From an uncultured delta proteobacterium (GTDB lineage: Bacteria > Desulfobacterota > Desulfuromonadia > Geobacterales > DSM-12255): 64,000 bases of DNA. The stretch is from assembly GCA_963787125.1 (NCBI GenBank), contig CAWBBV010000006.1:96001-160000 (forward strand), read 5' to 3'. Under the pieces are notes generated by a model. It was not told the DNA's origin. It did not search any database and was given only the letters and a program-made list of their open reading frames with translations. This document shows, in pieces, positions 54,641 through 63,950 of this stretch. The position numbers and the translations under genes were made by a program. Position 1 is the stretch's first letter. Every line of letters starts with the position of its first letter.

Positions 54641-54735
54641 ACTTTTAGTAGGTTAGAAGTATTTTTTTGCGCATTACCAGCAGATAATTACTTCATTAGC
54701 GCACTTACCCTGTTTAACGGGTTCAGGAGTCATTG

Positions 54736-56124
54736 ATGCAAGATAAAATAAGACTGATCGATTCCCATGCTCACATTTACGGCAAAGAGTTCGCTGCTGA
54801 TTTCGACCTAATGATGCAACGGGCAGTTGATGCGGGGATAGAGACAATAATAGTCGTCGGGGCAGATCTTGAGTCAAGTATTCAGGCAGTGACGTTGGCG
54901 CAGAAATTTACGAATCTTTATGCTGCAGTAGGTATTCACCCTCATGACGCCAATCGTGTTACCGAAGAGTGTTACAAAAAGATTATAGCTCTTGCCGAAA
55001 ACAACGATAAAGTTGTGGCCATCGGTGAGATCGGCCTTGATTTTTATCGTGACCGTTCACCACGGCCCGATCAAGAGCAGGTTTTCCGCAGGTTCATTCA
55101 GATTGCCAGAAAGCTTTCCCTGCCGGTCATCATCCATGATCGTGATGCTCACGAACGAGTCATGAGCATCCTTCGCGAAGAGTGTGCCGCTGAAGTTGGC
55201 GGGGTACTGCACTGCTTCTCCGGTGATCTGCAGATGGCACAGGAGTGCATTGATCTTGGCTTTTACATTTCCATTCCAGGGACCGTTACTTACCCCGGCA
55301 ACCTCGCCCTCCACGAGATAGTCAGAAGTATCAAGACTGAGCATCTCCTGGTAGAAACCGACTGTCCCTATCTCTCGCCGGTCCCTTATCGCGGCAAACG
55401 GAATGAACCTGCCTATGTGAGACTTGCCGCTGAAAAAGTTGCCGAGCTGAAGGGGCTCACCCTTGCTGATGTTGCGAGGATCACAAAACTCAACAGTGAA
55501 AGGCTTTTCCGGCTGGGAAATATATCAGGCAACGAAACTATCGCCTATAAAATACGCAACTCTCTTTATCTGAACATCACCAATCGCTGCTCCAACAGCT
55601 GCACTTTCTGTGCAAAGTTCGAGGATTTTACTGTTAAAGGTCATCATCTTCAGCTGCAGCACGAACCCTCGGCACAAGAAGTACTTGAGGCTATCGGGGC
55701 GAGAGTCGATTTTGACGAAGTAGTTTTCTGCGGTTATGGTGAGCCGCTTATCAGGCTGGATGTTGTCAAAGAGGTGGCAGCAGAACTCAAGCGAAGGGGA
55801 AGCAGGGTCAGGATCAACACTGACGGCCAGGCAAATCTCGTTCACGGTAGAGACATTCTCCCTGAACTTGCAGGAATAGTTGACACCATCTCGGTCAGCC
55901 TGAATACAGCTGACCCGGCACAATATCAAAAACTCTGCCGGACACCGTTCAAGGATGCCGGATTCAGGGGGGTCTGCGATTTCCTTAAAGGCGCCACCCA
56001 GTATATTCCGGAAGTTGTCGCAACGGCGGTGACAGTCCCCGGGGTAGATATCAGCGCAGTTAAAAAGCTGGCGGAAGCACTCGGGGTAAGTTTCCGCGAG
56101 CGGGAGTATGCTGAGGTAGGCTAG
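54736..56124 (+). CDS. TatD-family hydrolase fused to a C-terminal radical SAM domain
   Basis: DSHAH, GIHPH, GEIGLD, HCFSG, ETDCPY; then LYLNITNRCSNSCTFC (CX3CX2C) and VFCGYGEP. Confidence 0.92.
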   Translation: MQDKIRLIDSHAHIYGKEFAADFDLMMQRAVDAGIETIIVVGADLESSIQAVTLAQKFTNLYAAVGIHPHDANRVTEECYKKIIALAENNDKVVAIGEIGLDFYRDRSPRPDQEQVFRRFIQIARKLSLPVIIHDRDAHERVMSILREECAAEVGGVLHCFSGDLQMAQECIDLGFYISIPGTVTYPGNLALHEIVRSIKTEHLLVETDCPYLSPVPYRGKRNEPAYVRLAAEKVAELKGLTLADVARITKLNSERLFRLGNISGNETIAYKIRNSLYLNITNRCSNSCTFCAKFEDFTVKGHHLQLQHEPSAQEVLEAIGARVDFDEVVFCGYGEPLIRLDVVKEVAAELKRRGSRVRINTDGQANLVHGRDILPELAGIVDTISVSLNTADPAQYQKLCRTPFKDAGFRGVCDFLKGATQYIPEVVATAVTVPGVDISAVKKLAEALGVSFREREYAEVG

Positions 56125-57599: not shown

Positions 57600-57626
57600 G
57601 AAAAGGGCTCCCGAGGAAGCCCTTTC
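57600..57626 (-). terminator. Intrinsic terminator of hfq
   Basis: Minus strand GAAAGGGCTTCC-tcg-GGAGCCCTTTTC followed by TGTTT. Confidence 0.75.
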
Positions 57627-57649: not shown

Positions 57650-57874
57650 TTACTGATGCAGTCTGAACTGGCCGTCAGTCGAGGTCAATGAGGCCACCGA
57701 ATGTTTATATATGAGGATATCGCCTTGAACTTCAAGTAGAATTGAGAAATTATCAAAAGACTTAATATAACCCTCTATAACATCACCTGACATCAGTTTA
57801 ATGGAGATCTTTACGCGCTCCTTACGGGATTGGTTCAGAAATTGATCCTGAATATTGAACGGCGCCTTTGTCAT
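57650..57874 (-). CDS. hfq: RNA chaperone Hfq
   Basis: NIQDQFLN, G.IKSFDNFSILL, LIYKHSV. Confidence 0.95.
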   Translation of the reverse strand: MTKAPFNIQDQFLNQSRKERVKISIKLMSGDVIEGYIKSFDNFSILLEVQGDILIYKHSVASLTSTDGQFRLHQ

Positions 57875-57954: not shown

Positions 57955-59169
57955 TCAGGCAGCAGGTCCGTAGCCACCCATCTTGAAACTGAATACCCCT
58001 TTAACCAGGTATTTAGGCGCTGGAGACACCGAAGAGTCGTAATCAGTCAGAACTACATCGAAAGTTCCGCTGACACTATCAGACATAACGGAATCCTGAG
58101 TAAAGATAATTGTCCCTTTTTCAACCTTTTTGGCAGTAGATTGGAGGCCATCAAGGACAGAGAAGGTGCCTGGAAACTGTTCATGGAGGCCGCCCGCTTC
58201 AATGGAAAAAGGCTTGTTCAGGTCTGGTAAATGAACAGAATCTGTTTTAGGGATATCTATTCGAAGGACAGTCCGGGAATTAATGTCTGTCAGGGAGGTA
58301 GCTACATTGGCCTGAATCGACCAGAAACTCTGATTGTCCGTTGAGTAGTAGAAGTTCGGGGCAACCGAAAATTTATAGTCGCTCTCCGAAATCTGCAGAT
58401 AATTTGTTTTGATGAGATTGGAAACAGCTTGATGAACCGGAGTGGAAGTTGACACTGCCACTGAAATGGAAGGAGCAGCAATCTGTGGGCTACCACCACC
58501 GCCGCCACAACCCTCAAAAGAGAGCGCTGAAAGTGATACAACCGTCACAAGAACAGCTCTTAAAAGTTTTCGCTGAAGATTGATCCCGCGGTTTACCTGA
58601 TGAGGATGCGCATACCCCTCCTCAACCAGCACTTCGCCAAGTTTCTTACGTGATTGTTGTTGTTTCTGCAGAGCGTCTGATAATTGTACCCGGGTGATAT
58701 ACCCTGAAGATATAAGAATTTCGCCAAGCCTCAGAGGTGATGGCTGAGTCTGACCAAGCTCCTGATTCTGCTGAAATCTTAAAACCGAATCAACCTGAGG
58801 CTCAGACAACAGCCCCATTTTTACAAGAATGTCCCCCAGCCTTTCTCCGGTAATTTTCTGTTCTTCAAGAGCGAAATCAAGCTGCTCAGGCGTCACCTTA
58901 CCAGTCATAAGGAGAAGAGAACCCAGCATCTTTCTGATACCGGCTGCCGACCTGACCGCATCTTCCAGACTCGAGAGATGATCCTGAATCGACAGGGCTG
59001 CATCAAGATCAGTCTTGTCAAGAACACCCATATTGACAAGCACCTGGCCGAGTAGCTCATTAGAGTGCTTCTGCACTTCAAGTGCAAGCTCAAGATGATC
59101 GCTTTCTATAAAGCCGCCATCTATGAGTATCTGGCCTAGCGGTCGCCTTGATTTAGCTGTATTTAACAT
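57955..59169 (-). CDS. Triple MshEN-like domain protein with internal lipoprotein-like signal and extracytoplasmic C-terminal domain
   Basis: Six 24-aa xLGxxLxxxGxxxxxxLxxxLxxQ motifs in three pairs; then RKLLRAVLVTVVSLSALSFEG-C-GGGGGS. Confidence 0.8.
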   Translation of the reverse strand: MLNTAKSRRPLGQILIDGGFIESDHLELALEVQKHSNELLGQVLVNMGVLDKTDLDAALSIQDHLSSLEDAVRSAAGIRKMLGSLLLMTGKVTPEQLDFALEEQKITGERLGDILVKMGLLSEPQVDSVLRFQQNQELGQTQPSPLRLGEILISSGYITRVQLSDALQKQQQSRKKLGEVLVEEGYAHPHQVNRGINLQRKLLRAVLVTVVSLSALSFEGCGGGGGSPQIAAPSISVAVSTSTPVHQAVSNLIKTNYLQISESDYKFSVAPNFYYSTDNQSFWSIQANVATSLTDINSRTVLRIDIPKTDSVHLPDLNKPFSIEAGGLHEQFPGTFSVLDGLQSTAKKVEKGTIIFTQDSVMSDSVSGTFDVVLTDYDSSVSPAPKYLVKGVFSFKMGGYGPAA

Positions 59170-59195
59170 GGCCGTTTCCTTATGAAAGGTGGAGC

Positions 59196-59242: not shown

Positions 59243-60202
59243 TTACCAATCAATTCCGCTGCTCAAAAACTTGGTCACACAAGCTGAGACGTCTTCACGA
59301 ATTAATGGAAATTTAAACCACTTCACTTCTTGATCGCTATTAAACCAGGTAAGTTGCCTTTTGGCATAATGCCTGCTCTTCTGCTTTATAAGCTCTATTG
59401 CGGCAGAAAGACTGTATTTGCCGGCAAGATATTCGCAAATCTCCCTGTAGCCAATGGACGCCAGTGACTTGGTTTCAGGAGAATACCCCTTTGCAAGGAG
59501 CAACTCGACTTCTGCAACAAGACCGGCGGCGATCATCAGGTCAACCCTGGCATTAATCCGCCGATAAAGTTCTGCCCTTTCAACATTTATTCCAATTTTC
59601 AATGAGTTATACCATTCTAACGTGAATCGGTGCTCACTCTGGAGCGCAGAGATTGGCTGTCCGGTCTGCCTGAACACCTCCAGTGCCCTGATAACCCTCA
59701 CCCGGTTGTTAGGGTGGATCTTTGCTGCGGAAGCCGGATCAACCGCCCGGAGAGATTCAAGCAGTTGCTCATTACCGAGCTGATCCGCAAGATTATTGTA
59801 CTCGGCTCTGGCGGCATCATCCGCACCTGGAACCTCTGCAAGCCCGTGCAGAAGTGCTTTTATATAGAGACCGGTGCCACCAACAATTATCGCAGTTCTA
59901 TCTCTGGCGCAGATCTCATTAACTACGTTTCTGCCAAGTTCGCAATAATCAGCAGCAGTAAACTCCTCGTCTGGATCAACAATGTCGAAGAGGTGATGGG
60001 GAATATGCTGCATAATCTCAGATGAGGACTTTGCCGTTCCGATATCCATCCCCCGGTAAACCTGCATGGAATCGGCGTTGACAATTTCACCGGCAAACTT
60101 TTCAGCCAGATTTACAGCCAGATCACTTTTACCGGAAGCGGTCGGGCCGACAATTATAATAATTTTCTGTTTTTTGGTTTTGGGAAATTCGCTAACGGTC
60201 AC
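59243..60202 (-). CDS. miaA: tRNA dimethylallyltransferase
   Basis: GPTASGKS, DSMQVYRGMDIGTAK, VGGTGLY, YAKRQLTW. Confidence 0.97.
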   Translation of the reverse strand: MTVSEFPKTKKQKIIIIVGPTASGKSDLAVNLAEKFAGEIVNADSMQVYRGMDIGTAKSSSEIMQHIPHHLFDIVDPDEEFTAADYCELGRNVVNEICARDRTAIIVGGTGLYIKALLHGLAEVPGADDAARAEYNNLADQLGNEQLLESLRAVDPASAAKIHPNNRVRVIRALEVFRQTGQPISALQSEHRFTLEWYNSLKIGINVERAELYRRINARVDLMIAAGLVAEVELLLAKGYSPETKSLASIGYREICEYLAGKYSLSAAIELIKQKSRHYAKRQLTWFNSDQEVKWFKFPLIREDVSACVTKFLSSGIDW

Positions 60203-60331: not shown

Positions 60332-62572
60332 ATGAATATCATACAAAATATGTATTTTAACTTAACCCCCTACATAATTTTGCCACTCCTCTCAGCCTTG
60401 ATAAATGCCATACTGGCAGGGATTGCACTTCGTGAGAGGAAAGTTGCCGCTGCTACCCCAATCTTCTGGATGACACTCAGCCTTTGTATCTGGTCTTTGG
60501 CATTTTCCATCGAAACCGCATCCAACGTTTTAGAACTTAAAATTATCTGCCGTAAAATCGTGGCAACATCCAACTGCCTCATTGCCCCTGCCCTGATCGC
60601 ACTTGCCCTGGAAGTAACCAGCCTCAAAAATTTACTAACCAGACGTCTTATTCTACTCCTCAGCGTAATCCCGCTACTGTCAACACTGCTTTTGTGGACG
60701 AGTGACCTGCACAACCTGCAACTCTACAGCTTCCATACTCACCGTAGCGGGGCACTACAACTGCTTGACTATGCCCAGGGAAATTTTTTCACCCTGGGGC
60801 ACTATTATTACATTCTGGCCCTCTATTTCATAGCCATCGCCATCTTCTTTTCCGGCTACTGGCGCTCGCCCCGCAGTGAATGGATTCGCTTTACCTACCT
60901 TATCAGCGCAGCACTTATTCCCCTTTTGATTGAAGTTTTCAAGATAACTCCGCTTGAGGGTTTTAACTTCACCTCCTCAACTTTTTTTATCTCGGGAGCT
61001 TTATACTTTACCGCAATATTCCGTTACCGATTGCTTGACCTCGTCCCGATTGCCCGCGAAACGCTCATTGAGCTAATGGCTGATCCGGTTATCGTTGTTG
61101 ATCGCTATGGCCAGGTTGCTCTGGCCAATCAGGCCGCGCGGACAATGTTCATGCTCCCCAAAGACCCGACCGGCGTTTCATTCGCGTTATTGGAAAATCA
61201 CTACCCGCTCATCGCGGAATTTATTTCTGATCTTGCTGATCATGGTGAAGAATGCATCTTAAAGGATGGGCCGGAGCAACGTTCCTGGCAATTCATCAAG
61301 AGCCCCATAGCGCCGCAGGGCGTTCATCAAGGCTGGATAATCACCCTGAAAGACATCACCACGCTCCGAAGCGCCAACGAAGCTCTCCAGAAAAGTAATG
61401 AGCTTCTCACCACACTGTCGCTGGCAGTGGAGCAGAGTCCAATTTCCATAGTCATCACCGACTTGAATGGCAATATTGAGTTTGTTAACCCGACATTTAC
61501 CCAGGTAACCGGCTATAGTCAGGAAGAAGCATTCGGACTTAATCCACGCATTCTCAAGACTGAGCTAACCTCGCCGGAACTGCACAAGAACCTCTGGGAA
61601 ACCATAATTGTCGGCAGGATTTGGGAAGGCGAACTCATTAACAAAAAGAAAAACGGAGAAGTTTTTACCGAGCAGGCAAAAATAGCACCTATTAAGGACA
61701 GAAAAGGAAACATCCGACATTATATCGCCTTCAAAGAAGATATAACGGCGCGAAAACTGGTTGAAAAAGAACTTAATCAACTCAACACATCCCTGTTGGG
61801 ACGGATAGACGAAGAGTCAAGGCGGCGGATGGAGCAGGAACGCTTACTGGCAAATCAGGCCCGGCTGGTAGCCATGGGCGAGATGATCGGTGCTATTGCC
61901 CATCAGTGGCGGCAACCTCTTGCCACCCTGGCGATGATTGTCCAGCGGATGCATGCTGTCGGTACCATGCAGAAGTTGACTGTTGAACAGCTCACTGAGT
62001 TCAAAGATAATGCCATGCGACAGATAAAATATATGTCTGACACAATTGAAGAATTTCGCAGCTTTTACAGTAAAGACAAACATACTGAAAAATTCTCTCC
62101 CTACACCTGCATAACTAATGCAGTGCGGCTCTTTGAGCCTCAGTTTTCCGGCAGCAACATCAAGGTAGAGATAAATGCGGCAAACACTTTCGATCTGCAA
62201 GTCATGGGCTTTCCCAACGAATTCAAACAGGTTGTTCTCAATCTGCTCGGCAACTCTCGTGATGCAATTGCCGAGTCCCGCACAACTGCGGGAAGGCCAC
62301 AGAATGGGCGCATCGTCATAGACATCTCCATACCGGCTGATAATCTGATGCAAATTGACGTTAGAGACAACGGCGGCGGCATTCCGGATACGATCGCCAA
62401 TCGAATATTCGACCCCTATTTTACCACCAAGGAAGACCGTGGCGGTACCGGCATCGGCCTCTACATGTCGCGCATGATCATGCAGGAAAGCCTTGGCGGT
62501 TCGCTCAGGCTCATTAAAACAAAAGAGGGCGCCGTCTTCAGGATAAAACTGCCGCTGGGAGAATTAACATGA
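60332..62572 (+). CDS. Sensor histidine kinase (7TM N-terminus, two PAS domains)
   Basis: ~7 TM ending in FRYRLLDLVPIARE; PAS (AVEQSPISIVITD..WEGELINKKKNG); H-box AHQWRQPL; DNGGGI, FTTK, GTGIGL. Confidence 0.92.
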   Translation: MNIIQNMYFNLTPYIILPLLSALINAILAGIALRERKVAAATPIFWMTLSLCIWSLAFSIETASNVLELKIICRKIVATSNCLIAPALIALALEVTSLKNLLTRRLILLLSVIPLLSTLLLWTSDLHNLQLYSFHTHRSGALQLLDYAQGNFFTLGHYYYILALYFIAIAIFFSGYWRSPRSEWIRFTYLISAALIPLLIEVFKITPLEGFNFTSSTFFISGALYFTAIFRYRLLDLVPIARETLIELMADPVIVVDRYGQVALANQAARTMFMLPKDPTGVSFALLENHYPLIAEFISDLADHGEECILKDGPEQRSWQFIKSPIAPQGVHQGWIITLKDITTLRSANEALQKSNELLTTLSLAVEQSPISIVITDLNGNIEFVNPTFTQVTGYSQEEAFGLNPRILKTELTSPELHKNLWETIIVGRIWEGELINKKKNGEVFTEQAKIAPIKDRKGNIRHYIAFKEDITARKLVEKELNQLNTSLLGRIDEESRRRMEQERLLANQARLVAMGEMIGAIAHQWRQPLATLAMIVQRMHAVGTMQKLTVEQLTEFKDNAMRQIKYMSDTIEEFRSFYSKDKHTEKFSPYTCITNAVRLFEPQFSGSNIKVEINAANTFDLQVMGFPNEFKQVVLNLLGNSRDAIAESRTTAGRPQNGRIVIDISIPADNLMQIDVRDNGGGIPDTIANRIFDPYFTTKEDRGGTGIGLYMSRMIMQESLGGSLRLIKTKEGAVFRIKLPLGELT

Positions 62573-63950
62573 ACGATCTGAAACAACTGAGCATACTGCT
62601 GGCTGAAGATGAGGACGAACTGCGTCGGGAGACCGCCGCCTTTTTAGAACTCTACTGCGGTAAAGTCTATCAGGCGGCAAATGGTCGTGAAGCGCTGCAA
62701 CTCTTTGAGCAGAACAGGCCGGATCTGGTTATCAGTGACATCAGAATGCCGGTCATGGATGGACTTGAACTTGCTACCAAACTGAAAAACCTTGCGCCGG
62801 AAACACCTTTCATCTTCTGTACCGCCTTCTCCGAAACTGTTTACCTGCTGAAAGCCATTGAGCTTGGTGTAGCGGCCTTTATCCGCAAGCCGGTAGATAC
62901 TGATCAGCTCCTGGACATAATCTCCAAAGCGGCGCTACCGACACTCCAACGCCGGGAAATCAGGGAGCTTTCCGAAGAATTGATAACGTCAATAGCCGCT
63001 CAGCTTGGCGGTGGTACCGCGCAGGAAGCTGTTGCCACACAGGCTGCCAGGGTAGCGCAAAGCCCGTTTTCCATTCTTCTCCAGGGTGAAACCGGCACCG
63101 GCAAATCCCGCCTGGCAGGTATCATTCACTCTCTTAGTCAAAGACGTAAGGGCCCGTTTGTCACGGTACAACTGGGCGCAACTCCTGAACAGCTGGTGGA
63201 AAGCGAGCTTTTCGGTCATATCAAAGGATCATTTACCGGCGCTGATCGCACCAGAACCGGCTTGATCGAAACAGCCGCCGGTGGCACCCTTTTTCTCGAC
63301 GACATCGAAACCACTCCAGCCGCAGTACAAGCTAAACTTCTCCGGTGCGTCGAGGAAAAACGCTTTACCCCGGTTGGCAGCAGTAGTGAAAAAATTGCTG
63401 ATGTCCGCATCATTGCCTCCAGCAATCGGAACCTCAAAGAGTTGGCCCTTAACAGGCTGTTTCGCGAAGACCTGTACTACCGCCTGGCAGACTTTACCCT
63501 CCGACTCCCGCCGTTACGGGAGATGCCCGAGAGTGTTCTGCCGATGGCTCTTACTTTTCTGCGTGATACCTGTGGCGAACTGGAAAGAGATGTCCCTCTC
63601 ATTGACGACGCCGCAGCCTTTCTCCTTACAACCATGCCGTGGCCCGGCAACATTCGCCAACTCAAAAGCGTCATCCGGCAAGCCGCCCTCTCAGCCGGAG
63701 ATATCCTGACTTCAGCTGATATTGCCGTTGATATTGATTTCCATGCCGCGCTCAATACTTCTCCCCCCCCTCCGACCTCGCCACCCCGCCACCCTTTCCC
63801 TGTGAAATGGACGTCCTTGAAAAATGGTCACTGGAGCAGGCGCTGCTTTTCTGTGGCGGCAAAAGAATGAAAACTGCCACCATGCTCGGGATGAATTACT
63901 ACACCTTCCGCAGACGCCTGGAAAAACATGGCATTGCTGAGAGTGAGTGA
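62569..63950 (+). pseudogene. Sigma54-dependent response regulator (REC-AAA+-Fis HTH), frameshifted near the C8 tract 63763-63770
   Basis: REC (AEDE, SDIRMP), GETGTGKS, ESELFGH.KGSFTGA, FREDLYYRL, WPGNIRQL; the HTH EKWSLEQALLFCGGKRMKTATMLGMNYYTFRRRLEKHG is in the -1 frame and ends at TGA 63950. Confidence 0.85.

Follow-up and report, generated by a model that had tools for sequence, protein, structure and literature searches.

How could a cytoplasmic receptor for cyclic di-GMP (c-di-GMP) come to stand in front of an export signal, and what might it control there? This question is raised by a gene in a 64,000-nucleotide stretch of DNA, hereafter the window, from an uncultured delta proteobacterium of the order Geobacterales (GTDB DSM-12255; assembly GCA_963787125.1, contig CAWBBV010000006.1, positions 96,001 to 160,000 of the forward strand). 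MshEN is one of two widespread c-di-GMP receptor modules. In the 404-residue product of this gene it occurs three times, followed by a segment resembling a lipoprotein signal peptide, a flexible linker and a beta domain. The original prediction, made from the sequence alone, had noticed this succession of MshEN, signal and exported domain, and the observation is confirmed here. As a whole we regard that reading as partly supported: its anatomy holds, and its function is putative. We lean towards taking the gene as encoding a lipoprotein precursor whose signal peptide bears a cytoplasmic extension of about 200 residues, made of three MshEN c-di-GMP-receptor domains. The protein would then plausibly be a c-di-GMP receptor of known kind with a new output.

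Three MshEN domains and an internal signal segment

The gene has the following parts. Invariance refers to an alignment of 55 of the 120 homologues listed, picked to span the range of identity.

57955..59169, minus strand: whole coding sequence (P0001), 404 residues and a stop codon, with no stops within the frame
58984..59142, minus strand: MshEN domain 1, residues 10-62; 55.0 bits; position 1 non-basic in both halves (P10, L39)
58771..58929, minus strand: MshEN domain 2, residues 81-133; 68.3 bits (residues 82-133); halves start with M81 and R110
58573..58731, minus strand: MshEN domain 3, residues 147-199; 63.1 bits (residues 147-194); R147 and K176 present
58507..58572, minus strand: signal-peptide-like segment, residues 200-221, with R200, K201 and R204, 14 uncharged residues, and F-E-G-C221
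58507..58509, minus strand: Cys221 codon (tgt), the putative lipidated +1 cysteine; invariant in 55/55 and aligned with the +1 Cys of lipoproteins
58411..58506, minus strand: Gly/Ser/Pro-rich linker, residues 222-253, disordered
57958..58410, minus strand: beta domain, residues 254-404, predicted to be exported; no Pfam family

The open reading frame, which had been claimed at these positions, is real. Its product matched NCBIfam family NF053729 (c-di-GMP_motif, MshE-related; cyclic di-GMP-binding domain-containing protein) in three stretches with an E-value of 5.1e-49 and 163.9 bits, and in a profile search of the genome each single stretch exceeded the curated cut-off of 38 bits. Six half-motifs of 24 residues start at residues 10, 39, 81, 110, 147 and 176, and the predicted 24+5+24 spacing is exact in all three pairs (10/39, 81/110 and 147/176). 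None of the six matched the strict MshEN consensus. Four fitted the relaxed motif of Wang et al. 2016 (PMC5013675, main text) and five did so when position 1 was left free; the half-motif at residue 81 deviates also at position 11, which is Lys. When the protein was shuffled 20000 times, such a motif turned up in 75 of the shuffled sequences.

The Gly, Gly, Leu and Gln positions of the motif were retained in all six halves by 53-55 of the 55 homologues. A basic residue at position 1 was kept across the homologues only in the last three halves (R110, R147 and K176). By this measure domain 3 seems fully competent and domain 2 half-canonical, and domain 1 is in doubt. The third pair is nearest to consensus, as was noted at the outset, and is the only one with a basic residue at position 1 of both halves.

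A search of PDB sequences gave PilF of Thermus thermophilus as the best match (E 2.9e-16, query residues 10-196). MshE of Vibrio cholerae (5HTL) was matched with an E-value of 6.5e-8; its residues 6-59 aligned with domain 2, so that M81 faces R9 and R110 faces R38 in the alignment. The AlphaFold2 (AF2) model of the full protein, with a mean predicted local distance difference test (pLDDT) score of 83.8, contains the four-helix MshEN_N fold. With Foldseek, the modelled MshEN superposed on c-di-GMP-bound MshE (5htl_B) with a root mean square deviation (rmsd) of 0.6 A over 55 columns (probability 1.00) and on PilF-GSPIIB (8pkz) with an rmsd of 1.0 A over 54 columns. No match of the full model reached E <= 0.001 in Foldseek, the E-values for MshEN being poor since the domain is short.

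MshEN usually accompanies an ATPase, and the statement that none is present here was borne out, as neither Pfam nor NCBIfam detected an ATPase family in the protein. A match to the PilB family TIGR02538 covered only residues 148-197 and scored 18.4 bits against a cut-off of 675. A partial match to NF008411 (NfrB; E 2.8e-14) was limited to the MshEN region. On the whole protein Pfam gave only DUF4388 (residues 149-216) together with sub-threshold rows, among which FumaraseC_C and DUF2949 were set aside as noise tracking the MshEN helices.

The last half-motif ends with Q199 and is followed directly, with no linker, by R200, K201, two Leu residues and R204. After 14 uncharged residues come E219, G220 and C221, and then the sequence GGGGGS. 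In the AF2 model residues 189-219 form a single continuous helix, in which the signal segment extends the last MshEN helix. Cys221, whose codon is tgt as predicted, and the adjoining Gly222 are invariant in the alignment. A PROSITE-like lipobox pattern of our own writing was passed by 45 of the 55 homologues; the boxes included LAAC (15), LTAC (7), LSGC (6) and MQGC (5). The claim of a complete type II signal at residues 200-221 stands for the basic n-region, the uncharged h-region and the invariant Cys, and needs qualifying at the lipobox, F-E-G-C being non-canonical beside [LVI][ASTVI][GAS]C. From the last half-motif to the Cys there are 14 residues in 20 of the 55 homologues and 18-21 in 35; a spacing of 14 is usual in the h-region of a signal peptide and leaves little length for a stable anchor in the membrane. 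A match to NCBIfam NF058595 ("lipo-invert tail") at residues 198-230 was too weak to be used (E 0.018, 15.4 bits against a cut-off of 37).

Beyond the Cys, the GGGGGS stretch, the Ser/Pro linker and the beta-rich domain of about 160 residues were found much as foreseen. pLDDT stayed below 50 over residues 220-253, and the length and sequence of the linker differ among homologues. AF2 modelled residues 245-404 confidently (mean pLDDT 90.9) with nine strands. Foldseek of the beta domain against the PDB found nothing at E <= 0.001, the top rows being hoefavidin and LpqH-like proteins. In a wide structural search the best hit was the LpqH orthologue 4xin_B (Z 6.6, rmsd 4.0 over 106 residues), a weak score in a range that is common. 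The ESM Atlas returned unnamed clusters and DUF6252/DUF5025 at 0.90 only. From the model the fold is predicted to be a small beta barrel or sandwich of lipoprotein type, and no function follows from it.

A conserved fusion and its relatives without MshEN

A signal inside a protein could also stem from a faulty assembly, or from two genes that were joined recently by chance. A protein search returned 430 homologues at E <= 0.001 from many independent assemblies, and the 120 listed are almost all 380-445 residues long, mostly near 400, and cover 96-100% of the query. Source names were given for few of them (Geobacteraceae, Desulfuromonadales, Geomonas and one Nitrospirota metagenome-assembled genome). 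In a whole-protein search that covered 151 genomes of the same order, full-length matches occurred in seven (the window's own genome, four congeners and two others), and a split match was seen in an eighth. As the relatives keep the fusion and the frame contains no stops, we attach almost no weight to an error or accident, which the original prediction had named as grounds for refutation. The gene is a conserved Geobacter-type fusion and neither a chance joining nor an artefact.

Homologues of the beta domain also exist without MshEN. Those at seven loci (L029 and L031-L036), from other Geobacterales genomes, are ordinary lipoproteins whose signal is N-terminal, and they share the Cys-GGGGG junction. 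A paralogue without MshEN in a congener (L037) is 72% identical over residues 199-403; its short, ordinary N-terminus leads into the same hydrophobic segment and an S-M-Q-G-C box. Cys221 aligns with the +1 Cys of these N-terminal lipoproteins. Because L037 and L029, L031-L036 share the junction behind ordinary N-termini, the segment that is internal in the 404-residue protein would be a normal lipoprotein signal where the cassette of MshEN domains is absent.

A further rival explanation is that of two products from one frame, an internal start giving a normal lipoprotein and the long form being minor or non-functional. The original prediction had stated that no start codon lies just before the signal. 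From residue 150 to the Cys there are in fact two in-frame ATG/GTG/TTG codons in the window, GTG at V180 and GTG at V208, so that the statement needs qualifying; neither codon is conserved. Many distant homologues have Met at position 201, which would suit an internal start; the window has Lys there. A start at V208, inside the h-region, would deprive the signal of its n-region. Four congeners have GTC, GTT or GTA in place of the V180 codon, and two orthologous loci (L010 and L013) contain no ATG, GTG or TTG between residues 176 and 218. An internal start as a conserved mechanism is ruled out by the non-conserved V180 and V208 codons and by the empty L010 and L013, and we consider two products in the window itself very improbable.

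One cassette before many exported proteins

The N-terminal part of the protein is far more widespread than the whole. Many more genomes of the same order contain open frames of 356-1150 residues in which residues ~5-217 were matched with 41-70% identity. An exhaustive HMMER search with residues 1-199 against 1.84 billion representatives returned 3965 proteins at E <= 0.001, of which 500 reached 1e-10 or better and 91 reached 1e-30 or better. We classified the 150 representatives listed of these 3965. The full cassette was N-terminal with at least 40 residues after it in 79, while 40 matched part of the cassette, 19 had internal MshEN repeats and 12 were fragments. A strict lipobox was present in 8 of the 79; nearly all of the other 71 had a hydrophobic run and then small residues, three lacking a clear run. 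Outside the order the cassette was sparse, being found at E <= 1e-25 in 8 of 401 sampled genomes of the phylum, the window's own included, and the matches in the others all lay in frames of 365-386 residues.

The following cargos were found behind the cassette, in frames read from genomes and in a Pfam scan of the representatives. The site after the hydrophobic core is given for each.

Beta domain of the window: lipobox
Big_5 and a glycoside-hydrolase-like part, in a congener: canonical L-A-G-C
FN3, Big_7 and DUF4082 repeat proteins: A-x-A-like (AMA, ASA, VFA)
CAP domains: A-x-A-like
Cytochromes with three CxxCH motifs (Paired_CXXCH_1, cytochrome c7): A-x-A-like
Sel1 repeats: A-x-A-like
Peptidase_C39_2: T-G-C and A-G-C lipoboxes
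Right-handed beta-helix: lipobox (M-T-G-C)
Beta domain of about 130 residues, no Pfam family: A-x-A-like

The part after the signal differs widely between families that share the cassette. Variability of this kind had been proposed as a check, and like the checks on Cys221 and on retention of the fusion by relatives it comes out in favour of the original prediction. The triple-MshEN cassette with its hydrophobic core is a portable N-terminal module in Geobacterales and elsewhere, and the gene of the window one member of a much larger modular class. We infer a topology with the N-terminus inside and the C-terminus outside (N-in/C-out), because cytochromes c, lipoproteins and FN3/Ig proteins are extracytoplasmic.

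The class with a beta domain of about 130 residues offers a second comparison with relatives lacking the cassette. Stand-alone homologues of this cargo (L058 and L059) carry an N-terminal type I signal that ends exactly at the A-x-A site of the cassette forms. The class adjoins SCPU-PapD-usher (Csu-type) pilus operons in both of the two loci that were widened. At one (L060, 882..7693) a cassette gene of the 353/364-residue type lies upstream of, and on the same strand as, an SCPU-PapD-usher-SCPU operon; at the other (L061, 2019..7599) the cassette gene is convergent to such an operon. In the Atlas the cargo, taken as ~126 residues, matched SCPU, DUF4402 and CS1 fimbrial proteins at 0.87-0.88, which are leads only; the neighbouring operons are stronger evidence.

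Some variants of the cassette genes were also seen. In L056 and L057 the pilin-like cargo stands in shorter frames (211 and 292 residues) than the triple-cassette forms (353-366 residues); read by eye, these frames, which may be incomplete, hold fewer MshEN-like stretches ahead of the hydrophobic segment. Four short forms of 214-235 residues (P0121, P0135, P0166 and P0209) end just after the hydrophobic core; they are indistinguishable from truncated metagenome genes and, if complete, would be tail-anchored triple-MshEN proteins. A cassette-FN3/Ig protein of 658 residues (L023) has a C-terminal stretch rich in G-D-x-N-G-D, which looks dockerin-like. Two matches of equal score in one genome (G104:C3:63040-63522 and G104:C16:59658-60140), in frames of 206 residues, cover only residues 6-168 and may be a duplicated truncated copy of the cassette.

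The hydrophobic core is itself conserved across cargo classes. Among 77 sequences L202 was kept in 72, A205 in 58, L207 in 63, A209 in 52 and L211 in 55, and A205 and A209 form a small-residue, AxxxA-like face (A205-x3-A209). Mean pairwise identity was 0.39 over the ~14 residues after the cassette and 0.10 over the next 14. Ordinary, disposable signal peptides are not conserved in sequence. Because the core, unlike these, is conserved across cargos, it belongs to the module, and the cleavage-site region to the cargo.

This conservation bears on the main rival explanation, that of an uncleaved bitopic inner-membrane protein. A permanent N-in signal anchor, with Cys221 lipidated or not, would let the cassette keep the periplasmic domain on the inner membrane; clustering, location or partner binding would then be under the control of c-di-GMP on the cytoplasmic side. 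A core conserved with the cassette across cargo classes, with its A205-x3-A209 face, is what a lasting helix with a partner would show; the continuous helix at residues 189-219 is in keeping with it, and uncharged runs of 16-28 residues in many members without the Cys could span the membrane. Against it, the distance of 14 residues from MshEN to Cys in 20 of 55 homologues is too short for a stable anchor, the invariant Cys corresponds by homology to the +1 Cys in true lipoproteins, and the A-x-A-like sites fall exactly at the signal cleavage sites of stand-alone homologues. A disordered linker of about 30 residues also disfavours conformational signalling to the beta domain. We consider a permanent anchor rather unlikely.

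Another explanation takes the cassette as the real product. Cleavage would make a membrane-tethered triple c-di-GMP binder, maybe released later, and leave the cargo unregulated; with one binder made per exported cargo, the cassette would buffer c-di-GMP or report on the flux of export. Cassette and core are far better conserved than the cargos, with 45-70% identity from one unrelated cargo class to another, as this would have it, and the short forms, possibly fragments, resemble such a product. But these forms are indistinguishable from truncated metagenome genes, nothing points to stable cleaved signal remnants, and the explanation leaves unaccounted for the consistently envelope- or biofilm-type cargos and the one class beside pilus operons. 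It seems improbable to us.

Mechanism, precedents and meaning

We return to the lipoprotein precursor with a c-di-GMP-binding extension. In such a precursor the cassette would fold in the cytoplasm and bind c-di-GMP, most securely at domain 3. The basic and hydrophobic segment at residues 200-220 would insert N-in/C-out via Sec, as signal peptides do. Lgt would diacylglycerylate Cys221 and LspA would cut before it, releasing a mature lipoprotein of ~184 residues that consists of the disordered tether and the beta domain. The cassette would stay on the cytoplasmic face, attached to the conserved hydrophobic core. Occupancy by c-di-GMP would alter the availability of the signal for targeting, or access to the cleavage site, so that export or maturation of the cargo would track the c-di-GMP level. 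The ligand would be well placed to affect the signal because the last half-motif, ending at Q199, is contiguous with the n-region. This contiguity, together with the service of one cassette to unrelated cargos through either type of signal peptidase (SPase), suggests that c-di-GMP acts on targeting or peptidase access. Binding of c-di-GMP, lipidation, cleavage, regulation and the direction of regulation are steps that we infer.

Several observations weigh against this reading. Throughout the family position 1 is non-basic in the first three half-motifs, where it is P or L, L and M (P10, L39 and M81 in the 404-residue protein). R9 of MshE, the residue aligned with M81, is termed pivotal in part of PMC12943098, and possibly only one or two of the three c-di-GMP sites bind. 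The F-E-G-C box of the window fails the lipobox pattern by its Glu at -2, where the stand-alone congener has Gln, and lipidation and cleavage are argued from homology only. lspA is present in the genome, and lgt was not found in the assembly, rated 99.96% complete, with PF01790 and TIGR00544. The absence of lgt is probably an assembly gap, as 19 of 21 relatives and all seven congeners have the gene. Many members without the Cys could equally be uncleaved signal anchors, and the conserved core may stay in the membrane permanently, together with a partner.

The original prediction had offered two functions, transmembrane c-di-GMP signalling or export and processing gated by c-di-GMP. The second fits the sequence better; allosteric signalling through the membrane fits poorly with a single helix, a disordered linker of ~30 residues and unrelated cargos. 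A known system close to the first is LapD/LapG inside-out signalling, in which cytoplasmic c-di-GMP sensing decides the fate of a periplasmic or surface protein. LapD consists of a degenerate GGDEF-EAL module, HAMP and a folded periplasmic output domain. None of GGDEF, EAL and HAMP was among the Pfam and NCBIfam matches of the 404-residue protein up to an E-value of 1. With its disordered linker after the Cys, and no common output domain, LapD-like transmembrane allostery is unlikely.

Like ordinary precursors processed by Lgt and LspA, among them the stand-alone homologues of its beta domain, the 404-residue protein has the layout of n-region, h-region, putative lipobox, Cys and Gly-rich tether; it differs from them in that its signal begins at residue 200 and not at the N-terminus. 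RsiV, an anti-sigma factor of Bacillus subtilis, is N-in with a cytoplasmic N-terminal domain, and its anchor is cut by signal peptidase under regulation. RsiV differs in its extracytoplasmic ligand, lysozyme, in its anti-sigma domain, and in the use of SPase I and not LspA. To our knowledge the known MshEN outputs are all cytoplasmic, namely secretion and pilus ATPases and glycosyltransferases.

In MshE, MshEN regulates a C-terminal type II secretion or type IV pilus ATPase in the cytoplasm (Wang et al. 2016, PMC5013675, main text). Like V. cholerae MshE, the 404-residue protein has the 24+5+24 motif, its domain 2 aligned and its model superposed with that protein; unlike MshE, it has an export signal after MshEN and no ATPase. 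PilF (6F8L, 8PDK, 8PKZ) also has three tandem N-terminal GSPII/MshEN domains and is the only solved protein of this kind that was matched; in PilF, however, other subdomains lie between the three, a hexameric ATPase follows them, and they have no link to the membrane. NfrB of E. coli, as described in part of PMC10118264, is a glycosyltransferase with a C-terminal MshEN. The likeness is that MshEN is part of a membrane protein and governs how much of an envelope or matrix component is made; there the C-terminal MshEN allosterically activates a cytoplasmic catalytic domain, whereas the part attached to MshEN in the 404-residue protein would lie across the membrane. The main text of PMC5013675 gives REC, HD-GYP, CheA, CheX, cyclases and kinases as partner domains of MshEN. 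The terms "signal peptide" and "transmembrane" have no occurrences in that main text, and the supplementary architecture tables might list such proteins. We found no published account of an MshEN module preceding a signal peptide in the literature covered, which did not extend to these tables. New here are the LpqH-like lipoprotein cargo, the housekeeping miaA-X-hfq context, a natural paralogue without the cassette, the breadth of cargos in one order, and the conserved core.

The context just named comprises the following features around the gene.

59177..59181, minus strand: AAGGA, resembling a ribosome-binding site, 7 nt 5' of the ATG, read from the sequence
59243..60202, minus strand: miaA (IPP transferase), same-strand upstream neighbour, gap 73 nt
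57650..57874, minus strand: hfq, same-strand downstream neighbour, gap 80 nt
57601..57626, minus strand: terminator-like hairpin 3' of hfq, from a consensus scan only

The same consensus scan found no terminators between miaA, the 404-residue gene and hfq. A promoter scan gave five sites against a shuffle mean of 4.6, that is, no excess. The miaA-X-hfq order is kept in four congener loci, including one cut by a contig end (L016), and not in three other orthologous loci. Beyond hfq lies a DUF512/radical-SAM/PDZ gene. A HisKA_7TM histidine kinase (7TM-PAS) and a sigma-54 response regulator at 60332..63870, plus strand, are divergent from miaA. A single frame of 463 residues at 54733..56124, plus strand, combines TatD_DNase (residues 9-260) with Radical_SAM (residues 280-449), an unusual pairing.

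A broader proposal, which we hold tentatively and think may well be wrong, is that cassette and core form a portable "pre-signal" switch that, set before a type I or type II signal, puts Sec targeting or signal-peptidase maturation of any cargo under direct post-translational control by c-di-GMP. The cargos of such a switch would be lipoproteins, multihaem cytochromes, adhesin-like FN3/Ig proteins, matrix enzymes and parts of Csu-type pili. If this is true, it would be a general means by which envelope composition follows a cytoplasmic nucleotide signal, with no need for transcription, cascades of proteolysis or a secretion ATPase of its own. Standard signal predictors assume an N-terminal signal and may miss or mislabel proteins of this kind during annotation. 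If the receptor module does sit on a Sec signal, export or maturation control of individual envelope proteins would be a new class of MshEN output. In Geobacterales the cargos are the parts from which electroactive biofilms are built (cytochromes, adhesin-like repeat proteins, polysaccharide-active enzymes and pilus parts), and the architecture would offer a concrete, testable link between c-di-GMP and remodelling of the envelope.

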